This document shows, piece after piece, positions 120 to 1,605 of a stretch of DNA of 7,008 nt (positions are counted from its first letter, which is position 1; every line of letters begins with the position of its first letter). The DNA is from an archaeon. GTDB lineage: Archaea > Asgardarchaeota > Thorarchaeia > Thorarchaeales > Thorarchaeaceae. A program made the translations under genes and the position numbers. Under the pieces are notes generated by a model that searched no databases, was not told where the DNA came from, and saw only the letters and a program-made list of their open reading frames with translations. The DNA is taken from the NCBI GenBank assembly GCA_024275415.1, contig JAJRZD010000083.1, positions 1-7,008 of the forward strand, given 5' to 3'.

Positions 120-647
120 ATGGGTCGAGGGGGAGGCATAAGACTGCCAGTTCCCCATTCAAGACAGCAGCGAGAAGGATGGTGTGTCCCTGCATGTGTC
201 GAAATGACCTTGTTGCATCTTCGCGGCTGCTATGGGCCTGGAATTGAGTGTCTAACTCAGGCTGAGATTGCTAAATTATGCGGAACGACAGAAGGCGGGA
301 CTAGGTGGGGTGATACCGAACAGCTTAGCGAATACACGTTGAGATTTATTCCTTCCATTGAGTACAACCTTGAGAAGAACAAGACGATAGAGGACATCAA
401 TGTGGAACTCTCCCAAAACAAACCTGTTCTCGCATTTGTCCAGATGGAAGCAGATCATGAAAAGTATGAACATGCATTACTCGTCACAGGACTGGAAATG
501 AGTGGCAACAGAGTGTACTACAATAATCCTATGGGGAAACCTGATGAGAATGTCGATATTGGTTCTTTTCTTGCTATGTGGGCAAAAGATTTCTGTATGT
601 GGACAACAAATATTGGACATCAAAGAATGATTGAAGACTATCTATAG
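120..647 (+). CDS. Stand-alone papain-fold cysteine peptidase, C39-like family (175 aa)
   Basis: N-terminal 'LPVPHSRQQREGWCVPAC' matches the C39-like pattern (Q16-x5-C22, oxyanion Gln and catalytic Cys). 'KPVLAFV' strand, catalytic His in 'EHALLVTG' (H118), and 'RVYYNNP' at the usual '..DP' position (N136). AGGAG RBS at 105-109. No signal peptide, TM segment or ABC domain visible. Confidence 0.85.
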   Translation: MGRGGGIRLPVPHSRQQREGWCVPACVEMTLLHLRGCYGPGIECLTQAEIAKLCGTTEGGTRWGDTEQLSEYTLRFIPSIEYNLEKNKTIEDINVELSQNKPVLAFVQMEADHEKYEHALLVTGLEMSGNRVYYNNPMGKPDENVDIGSFLAMWAKDFCMWTTNIGHQRMIEDYL

Positions 648-649
648 GA

Positions 650-660
650 ATTAGGAGAAT
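650..660 (+). promoter_or_regulatory. Shine-Dalgarno context ATTAGGAGAAT upstream of the 664 ORF
   Basis: AGGAG at 653-657, 6 nt before ATG 664, within a 16-nt intergenic gap, consistent with co-transcription with the peptidase. Confidence 0.7.
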
Positions 661-663
661 ACG

Positions 664-1605
664 ATGGAAGCTGTGGATATGGCTCGTCAATTCGTGATGA
701 GCAACTATGGGAATCTTATACAACTTGGAGACCCTATTTATGAAGACGAAACACAGCTAGTCAGATTCACCCTCCGATCCAATTATCCATTCATGATCAT
801 TGACGATGATGATGGAGATATAAGAGTTCGAATTATTAAAATTGAGAATCTAGGCTCAGTATATCTCGACAAGGATTTGAACCTTCGCAGGGCAATGTGT
901 ACAGATAGAAAAACGGTCGATTTGCGAATTAGAGACACTCTCGCTCATTGGAAACGAAGAACTGAGCAAGTTGTGGCCATGAATACAGCATCAAAACTGG
1001 CAGAGCTTGACCAATTCCGTCAGTTCTTCATGCCAATCCAGAACATTGTTTATTACATTCTAGAAATGGGAACAATCTCTGAGAATGAGATTGTAAAGTC
1101 GGAAAGTAGAACTACAGGAAAACTTCGCAAATATGTAGAATTACTGGAAGGACAAGACCTTCTTCAGAGAACTGACGGAGCTTGGGAACCGACCGTTGCC
1201 CTCAGAGAGTTGGAACGTAAATCTGATAGTCGTAACGATTTTGTCAAATCGGTCATTTCACTATTGATCAAAGAAAGATACTTGGCTCTCAGAGAACTGA
1301 TGCGGTTAAATGTCTTACATAGAGTCATTCGAATTCAAAATATCATATATCTTCCTGAGATAGAAGTGAAGCACAACCTCAGGCGAACCTTAGGGAGCGT
1401 TCGTGGCGAGTATTACTATCATTATGGGACAGCGATCGATTCAATCAGCTTGGTTAGTAATCTTGTGAGTCTCTCAGAAGTCGGGATAGTGGATGAAACT
1501 AGGGAAAAGAGGCTGTTTAGTGGCGATGAAGAACTACTTGAGGGAATGATTAAGGAAATGGCGACTCTACCTACACTTACTTCGTTGGGCCATAAGCGTA
1601 CCTAG
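664..1605 (+). CDS. Uncharacterised protein (313 aa): N-terminal alpha/beta domain (PepSY/Imm35-like layout, tentative) plus two putative winged-helix domains
   Basis: Long ORF with a good RBS. Residues ~124-178 ('IVYYILEMGTISENEI...KLRKYVELLEGQDLLQRTDGAWEP') and ~220-288 ('LVSNLVSLSEVGIVDETREKRLFSG') show helix-helix-recognition helix-beta wing patterns. The gene is well supported; the domain calls are by eye only. Confidence 0.7.
   Translation: MEAVDMARQFVMSNYGNLIQLGDPIYEDETQLVRFTLRSNYPFMIIDDDDGDIRVRIIKIENLGSVYLDKDLNLRRAMCTDRKTVDLRIRDTLAHWKRRTEQVVAMNTASKLAELDQFRQFFMPIQNIVYYILEMGTISENEIVKSESRTTGKLRKYVELLEGQDLLQRTDGAWEPTVALRELERKSDSRNDFVKSVISLLIKERYLALRELMRLNVLHRVIRIQNIIYLPEIEVKHNLRRTLGSVRGEYYYHYGTAIDSISLVSNLVSLSEVGIVDETREKRLFSGDEELLEGMIKEMATLPTLTSLGHKRT

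Follow-up and report, generated by a model that had tools for sequence, protein, structure and literature searches.

The stretch of DNA analysed here (the window, 7,008 nucleotides, which opens contig C64 of a 3.5 Mb genome) carries a gene for a papain-fold peptidase followed by a gene for a winged-helix protein, and the question it raises is what such a pair could do in an archaeon. The first-pass annotation suggested that the second protein may be the inhibitor and autoregulator, or else the substrate, of the first. The reading we favour, with moderate confidence, is that the two genes form a mobile, toxin-first module resembling type II toxin-antitoxin systems, in which the peptidase docks on the sliding clamp.

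The two genes and their products

The two co-oriented genes, separated by 16 nt, were verified as open reading frames on the forward strand. The features to which we refer below are, in window coordinates:

102-112, + strand: first copy of an 11-nt Shine-Dalgarno-like word (incidental)
120-647, + strand: C39-like papain-fold cysteine peptidase, putative toxin, 175 aa (Pfam PF13529, E 4.6e-12; family alignment; hydropathy)
165-185, + strand: from Gln16 of the oxyanion hole to the catalytic Cys22, neither of which varies among 31 homologs
294-302, + strand: Gly59-Gly60-Thr61 cleft loop, pairing with partner residues 17-19 in the complex model; G60 invariant
471-473, + strand: catalytic His118, invariant
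525-527, + strand: Asn136 at the third triad position, which is Asp in 28/31 homologs
621-644, + strand: C-terminal PIP-box-like motif Q-R-M-I-E-D-Y-L, candidate PCNA docking tail (pattern in 16/30 intact homologs vs 24/2764 host ORFs)
650-660, + strand: the same 11-nt word again, preceding the partner
664-1605, + strand: partner, unnamed family, putative antitoxin or inhibitor, 313 aa (94 clusters at 50% identity; AlphaFold2 model)
664-963, + strand: partner N-domain, a helix and a curved beta-sheet bearing a long hairpin; the model places residues 12-20 and 39-44 within the peptidase cleft
1009-1221, + strand: winged helix 1, with conserved Lys153 and a basic wing, possible DNA binding (model, fold matches)
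1309-1566, + strand: winged helix 2, of which residues 248-255 also contact the peptidase in the model (model, fold matches)

The first gene carries the Gln/Cys/His/Asp-or-Asn catalytic set of C39-like papain-fold peptidases. In the Pfam search its match to Peptidase_C39_2 scored 47.2 bits against a curated cut-off of 24, and Q16, C22, G60, H118 and P137 were invariant in the alignment of 31 homologs. By hydropathy, the product has no signal or membrane segment, and no hydrophobic segment was found in the peptidase or partner family, which bears out the original description of a soluble C39-like peptidase. All intact peptidases (30/30) are stand-alone proteins of 166-231 aa, with no fused delivery part such as PAAR, CdiA or an entry domain. 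The absence of a transporter or precursor peptide nearby also held: there is no exporter downstream in the window, where the check covers the right side only as the contig begins 119 nt before the peptidase gene, and neither an exporter nor a precursor peptide recurs in about 45 homologous loci. Judged from its sequence and surroundings, the gene 1 product is a C39-like peptidase, but neither a PCAT leader peptidase nor a delivered polymorphic toxin. Among solved structures, chains of Cpe1 and StbD are some of the closest to the peptidase profile (E 6e-4 to 0.01).

Most members of the partner family are 300-330 aa long, and the partner matches no family in Pfam, NCBIfam or PADLOC. Its AlphaFold2 model (pLDDT 88.7) has two winged helices besides an alpha/beta N-domain of ~100 residues and a long helix; the fold search matched model residues about 115-196 and 215-305 (best Z 9.2), in agreement with the two winged helix-turn-helix-like regions proposed from the sequence. 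For the N-domain, the fold matches were weak and included PepSY, propeptide and cystatin-like chains, and Foldseek against the PDB matched neither the whole partner nor the N-domain at E<=0.001, which is not proof of a new fold. Membership of Imm35, the inhibitor family paired with Tox-PL toxins, was not supported: there was no Imm35 or PepSY Pfam match among 54 N-domains at E<=0.5, and the fold matches reached just a Z of about 5. ESM Atlas feature searches gave leads only, all under 0.8; in that atlas, shapes like the N-domain (TM about 0.6) stand alone in proteins of 80-120 aa from Planctomycetota and Promethearchaeota, and also occur in fusions with N6/N4 DNA methylases and with an AbrB/MazE-type domain. 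No profile of the PADLOC 2023 library matched either window protein, and among 81 partners there were only scattered single-member matches, in keeping with the earlier view that the pair fits no named system.

The two genes had also been described as having identical 11-nt ribosome-binding contexts. The word is present before both genes, but can be explained as incidental, because there are 3 copies in the genome with about 1.7 expected by chance (simple arithmetic), its distance to the start codon differs between the two genes, and it is not seen before homologous peptidases. The same grounds led us to reject the word as an operator or as a common signal. Inspection by eye showed no motif common to the DNA before homologous cassettes, and a sigma-70 promoter scan, which is unsuited to archaea, gave nothing above shuffles. 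A short open frame at window 46-114 ends in the first copy of the word and is similar to the final part of a small ORF that precedes the peptidase gene in two homologous loci (L001 and L005); from this likeness, a third small gene may belong to the cassette in the window's clade. In some loci, a separate RHH gene adjoins the pair.

Inheritance, mobility and loss of the pair

Partner copies, full or edge-cut, were found in 13 of the 86 host-family (Thorarchaeia) genomes and in 18 of 401 genomes of the Bathyarchaeia class, with further copies in other archaeal assemblies. With a single query, the partner was not found in 314 Asgard genomes outside the host family, and a viral-contig scan with one protein and a plasmid tblastn, both of low sensitivity, gave no matches. 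Searching from the partner could miss solo peptidases, which is covered by peptidase-first searches whose profile was built from paired copies. These placed the peptidase directly upstream of the partner in 11/11 matches in the 86 genomes of the host family and in 18/18 strong matches (E<=1e-31) in the 401 Bathyarchaeia genomes, a count of strong matches that leaves out six weak C39-like matches in longer ORFs (E>=2e-13). All 29 of these clade-level peptidases in 487 genomes were therefore beside a partner, with no solo peptidase. An earlier profile, made almost entirely from Thorarchaeia copies, still recovered Bathyarchaeia members at E 1e-24 to 1e-41.

The pairwise distances of peptidase and partner correlate (r 0.87, 30 pairs), and the two trees have the same supported clades, with host groups mixed; one copy frameshifted near the catalytic Cys (L068) was left out of the trees and recounts. 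Correlated distances and matching clades point to joint inheritance, and are not proof of interaction. In related pairs that were not saturated, dN/dS was 0.05-0.27 for both genes, a range that indicates purifying selection on each, and the window's own comparison was saturated at silent sites. The cassette is real and conserved, with a patchy spread in Thorarchaeia-family and Bathyarchaeia genomes, and the genes stay together in the genomes searched, a point that the first-pass annotation had proposed to check. Adjacent, co-oriented genes that are inherited as a unit are also the genetic criterion of a type II system. A Thorarchaeia-family copy on a 1920-nt contig (L023, G319:C77) groups with Bathyarchaeia copies in both trees, which could be a recent transfer or a misbinned short contig.

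The pair is mobile. In four genus relatives that do not have the cassette, the gene equivalent to window 1886-2818 is directly beside a divergent core gene. In the host genome, contig C66 terminates with that divergent core gene, which places the entry of the cassette between the two. The flanking genes differ among most other carriers. At another locus (L088:7939-13485), the pair travels as cargo in a 5.55-kb element that has a DDE transposase and 12-bp terminal inverted repeats and is flanked by a 9-bp target duplication. The element also contains an RHH gene, a 192-aa gene and genes for a methylase and an MjaI-like restriction nuclease, and it recurs 99.8% identical at a different site (L090:7939-13485). 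Other copies adjoin IS or TnpB-like genes and restriction-modification genes. The first-pass annotation had proposed to look for integrases, restriction-modification or other defence genes beside the pair; most Bathyarchaeia and Thorarchaeia copies are lone islets amid housekeeping genes and not in defence islands.

Several further observations were made in these neighbourhoods. Genes for tRNA adjoin some copies (L062:9190-9276, L068:8520-8592 and L029:6428-6515) and are possible integration sites. On a virus- or plasmid-like contig (L091:1-20927), a distant partner follows a 144-aa gene of no assigned family instead of a peptidase, and, 4 kb upstream, a probable peptidase fragment is surrounded by two restriction-modification pairs and two transposases. 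Outside the cassette, window 1886-2818 is a genus core gene with a longin-like N-terminus fused to a TackOD1 zinc-ribbon domain, and window 3733-5445, which is flanked by Mtd and by two longin-domain genes, encodes a membrane protein whose C-terminus is a helix-hairpin-helix domain (HHH_5).

Were the peptidase harmful when free, losses would be expected to hit the peptidase and not the partner alone, and this is the pattern that was found. Alongside about 31 loci with intact pairs, there are 9 in which a full-length partner accompanies a frameshifted, stopped, truncated or missing peptidase (L013, L026, L032, L033, L034, L068, L091, L102 and L106). The reverse case, an intact peptidase with a broken partner, was found in 0 loci, though the partner gene is the longer target. 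One locus had partner fragments only and no peptidase, and four partners at contig edges were left out of the count. A split of 9 to 0 would have a probability of about 1e-4 if breaks were proportional to gene length, a figure that is overstated as the loci are related and some frameshifts may be assembly errors. The host genome itself has a second partner (G000:C1:36621-37556, equivalent to L013:9622-10557 on the - strand), 29% identical, with no peptidase upstream or elsewhere in the assembly, which looks like an orphan antitoxin-like copy. The loss pattern favours an inhibitor or antitoxin role for the partner over a substrate role.

The predicted complex and the C-terminal tail of the peptidase

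A structure model of the pair, one of the checks proposed with the first-pass annotation, scored 0.89, while the best of 3 controls scored 0.00. The mark used for this score is reached by 58/80 solved complexes and 2/110 mismatched pairs, counts that are only roughly valid for the alignments used here. The runs share >=95% of contacts and the partner has a pLDDT of 86. Neither fold nor sequence searches found a similar complex, which makes it unlikely that the model simply reproduces a solved pair. The N-domain of the partner is predicted to sit in the catalytic cleft. On the peptidase, the modelled surface comprises residues 15-23, 56-64, 114-119 and 138-140, and takes in Q16, C22, G59-T61 and Y116-H118; on the partner, the modelled contacts are residues 12-20, 39-44, 53-59, 82-93 and 248-255. 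The idea that the interface would be extra-conserved was rejected, as its residues were no more conserved than the remainder of either protein (p 0.33 and 0.84).

In the model, E117 of the peptidase contacts partner residues 17-20, and the corresponding position in the solved StbD-GyrB complex, the residue preceding the catalytic His, contacts the substrate. The modelled strand in the cleft would also fit a substrate as well as an inhibitor, and the model does not separate the two. Of the two roles first suggested for the partner, binding in the cleft is thus predicted and the loss pattern leans to the inhibitor, which leaves a substrate role as the less likely of the two.

The tail motif of the peptidase comes after its last strand and matches the PIP pattern, relaxed at the final position; the PIP consensus is Qxx[I/L]xxFF and is usually terminal (PMC9690074). 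Scored as Q-x-x-[LIM]-x-x-[FYW] within the last 25 residues, the pattern is enriched in the intact peptidases at the counts given above, and was found in 2/31 partners and 3/187 internal windows. By column, Q is present in 22/28 homologs, L/I in 29/30 and the aromatic residue in 24/30, counts that include the frameshifted L068 copy. PCNA is encoded in the host genome, and a host protein which, from its sequence, we take to be FEN1-like has the same type of C-terminal motif. The first-pass annotation of the pair does not mention this conserved tail, which suggests that the peptidase may be directed toward the replication clamp. In the three closest homologs of the window peptidase the tail is degenerate, so clamp docking may be optional or dispensable. 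The L105:1502-2098 and L077 peptidases have Q-Q-D-L-F near the end, which is nearer to the bacterial clamp motif QL(S/D)LF than to the PIP box.

Possible mechanisms and relation to known systems

In the toxin-antitoxin-like reading, the upstream gene would encode a cytoplasmic papain-fold peptidase that docks on archaeal PCNA via its PIP-like tail. When free, the peptidase would cut a replication or repair protein at the clamp, or the clamp itself, and growth would stall. The partner would be the cognate inhibitor, a strand of its N-domain running along the substrate path and covering the catalytic Cys and His; if the partner is lost or displaced, the peptidase would be freed to act at PCNA. 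The winged helices of the partner are likely to bind DNA, whether as repressor of the operon or as sensor of a trigger, and the module may serve in addiction or defence. Several points count against this reading: a strand in the cleft fits a substrate too, the closest homologs have a degenerate tail, the interface is not specially conserved, most copies are lone islets, some of the frameshifts may be assembly errors in loci that are not fully independent, and a well-folded antitoxin of 313 aa is unusual. A more specific proposal, which we put forward only tentatively, is a toxin-antitoxin or abortive-defence system in which a PCNA-recruited protease toxin destroys clamp-bound replication proteins, is caged by a tandem winged-helix antitoxin and is released on sensing DNA or a foreign replisome. 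It would be, in Asgard archaea, the prokaryotic conflict-system counterpart of PIP-bearing fork proteases.

An alternative is that the pair is a protease-switched regulator or latent effector, with the partner as a substrate cut near residues 16-20 upon a signal at PCNA such as damage or foreign replication, freeing or destroying the winged-helix DNA-binding part, in the manner of IrrE-DdrO and CapP-CapH with their other protease classes. The order of contacts in the model (61:17, 60:18 and 59:19, peptidase:partner) may be taken for a strand that runs forward as a substrate would. Cleavage by C39-type enzymes occurs after Gly, with a preference for Gly-Gly (10.64898/2026.05.07.723447), and Gly16 is conserved in 71/80 partners, mostly preceded by an aromatic residue. 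A switch would also explain two winged helices with basic positions, and would tolerate loss of the peptidase. However, the residues beside G59-G60 in the model are Leu18 and Ile19 and not Gly, no regulated genes recur beside the pair and no upstream motif is shared by eye, and loss of a mere substrate should be harmless, so that solo peptidases would be expected where there were 0 in 487 genomes. We therefore regard the switch as unlikely, though it deserves to be taken seriously.

The PIP-like tail could instead belong to a non-toxic, PCNA-bound protease or isopeptidase in repair, which would have a regulatory, DNA-binding subunit and would remove DNA-protein crosslinks or ubiquitin-like tags linked through Gly-Gly, and the Gly-Gly preference of C39 enzymes and the weak match of the peptidase profile to the isopeptidase PeiR (E 0.033) would be in line with this. 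The patchy spread (13/86 and 18/401), the many unrelated insertion sites, the frequent decay of the enzyme and its carriage by a transposon better fit a selfish or conflict module, which makes an accessory repair enzyme improbable. If the partner were instead an obligatory chaperone or split-off propeptide, the tail motif would be a by-product unrelated to PCNA. A fungal metalloprotease propeptide and PepSY repeats are indeed among the best, though weak, fold matches of the N-domain (Z 5.2), and, judged by the strict pattern, about half of the homologs have a degenerate tail. A chaperone would have no need of two conserved winged helices, and the Q-x-x-L/I-x-x-aromatic tail has been kept across 15-60% identity outside the modelled partner interface (its absence from the named interface residues does not prove lack of contact), and this explanation seems to us very improbable.

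If the toxin-antitoxin-like reading is correct, toxin-antitoxin biology would gain a new toxin activity and a new inhibitor domain, and a small, testable handle would be at hand for asking how mobile elements attack the archaeal replisome or police it. In Asgard archaea, a protease that docks on the clamp would also be relevant to the origin of eukaryotic fork proteases. Both proteins are small and soluble, and the predictions that concern C22, Q168/I171/Y174 and partner residues 15-20 and 39-44 are directly testable.

Our literature search, with subscription journals largely outside its coverage, found no description of this pair, no two-gene archaeal module with a cytoplasmic cysteine-protease toxin and no such protease aimed at PCNA. 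Each step of the proposed mechanism has a separate precedent, in cleavage by Cpe1 and StbD, cleft binding by staphostatin and clamp binding by SocB. Among systems with a peptidase and a helix-turn-helix protein, IrrE-DdrO and CapP-CapH consist of zinc metallopeptidases with small HTH repressors that control other genes, whereas here the peptidase is a cysteine peptidase and no regulated genes recur. The C39 domains of PCAT/AMS exporters (ComA, LahT) share the fold family and catalytic residues, but in our pair there is no transporter fusion, recurring exporter or precursor peptide. Tox-PL1/Imm35 and Tox-PLC39 (PMC3482391) also combine a papain-like toxin with an adjacent, alpha+beta predicted inhibitor; they are polymorphic exported toxins, whereas our pair has no secretion or repeat domains and its N-domain has no Imm35 Pfam match. 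SocB of the Caulobacter SocAB system is a toxin that reaches the sliding clamp via a clamp-binding motif (PMC9690074, PMC5086665). In that system the toxin is described as a clamp binder and SocA acts as a proteolytic adaptor, whereas here the toxin candidate is itself the protease and the clamp is PCNA, with no homology implied.

Cpe1 and StbD are C39-fold cytoplasmic toxins that cut the replication enzymes GyrB and ParE (PMC12136450; 10.64898/2026.05.07.723447). In Cpe1-Cpi1 (T6SS) and StbD-CT/StbI (CDI), a C39-fold Cys/His/Asp peptidase has a cognate inhibitor encoded by the adjacent gene, as we propose for the pair described here, and the Q-x5-C spacing of Gln177/Cys183 in StbD equals that of Q16/C22 in the window peptidase. 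The differences are that Cpe1 and StbD are the exported tips of large Gram-negative effectors, while the window peptidase is stand-alone, archaeal and has a PIP-like tail, and that Cpi1 and StbI are small and bind an exosite, leaving the active site open, while the partner here has 313 aa and two winged helices and is modelled in the cleft. An endogenous inhibitor that binds the cleft is known in staphostatin, the inhibitor of staphopain (PMC7863939). That pair (C47/I57) differs in that the protease is secreted, the inhibitor is a small beta-barrel lacking DNA-binding domains, and no clamp motif is present. In its proposed way of working, the pair resembles Cpe1-Cpi1 or staphopain-staphostatin, and it belongs to neither.
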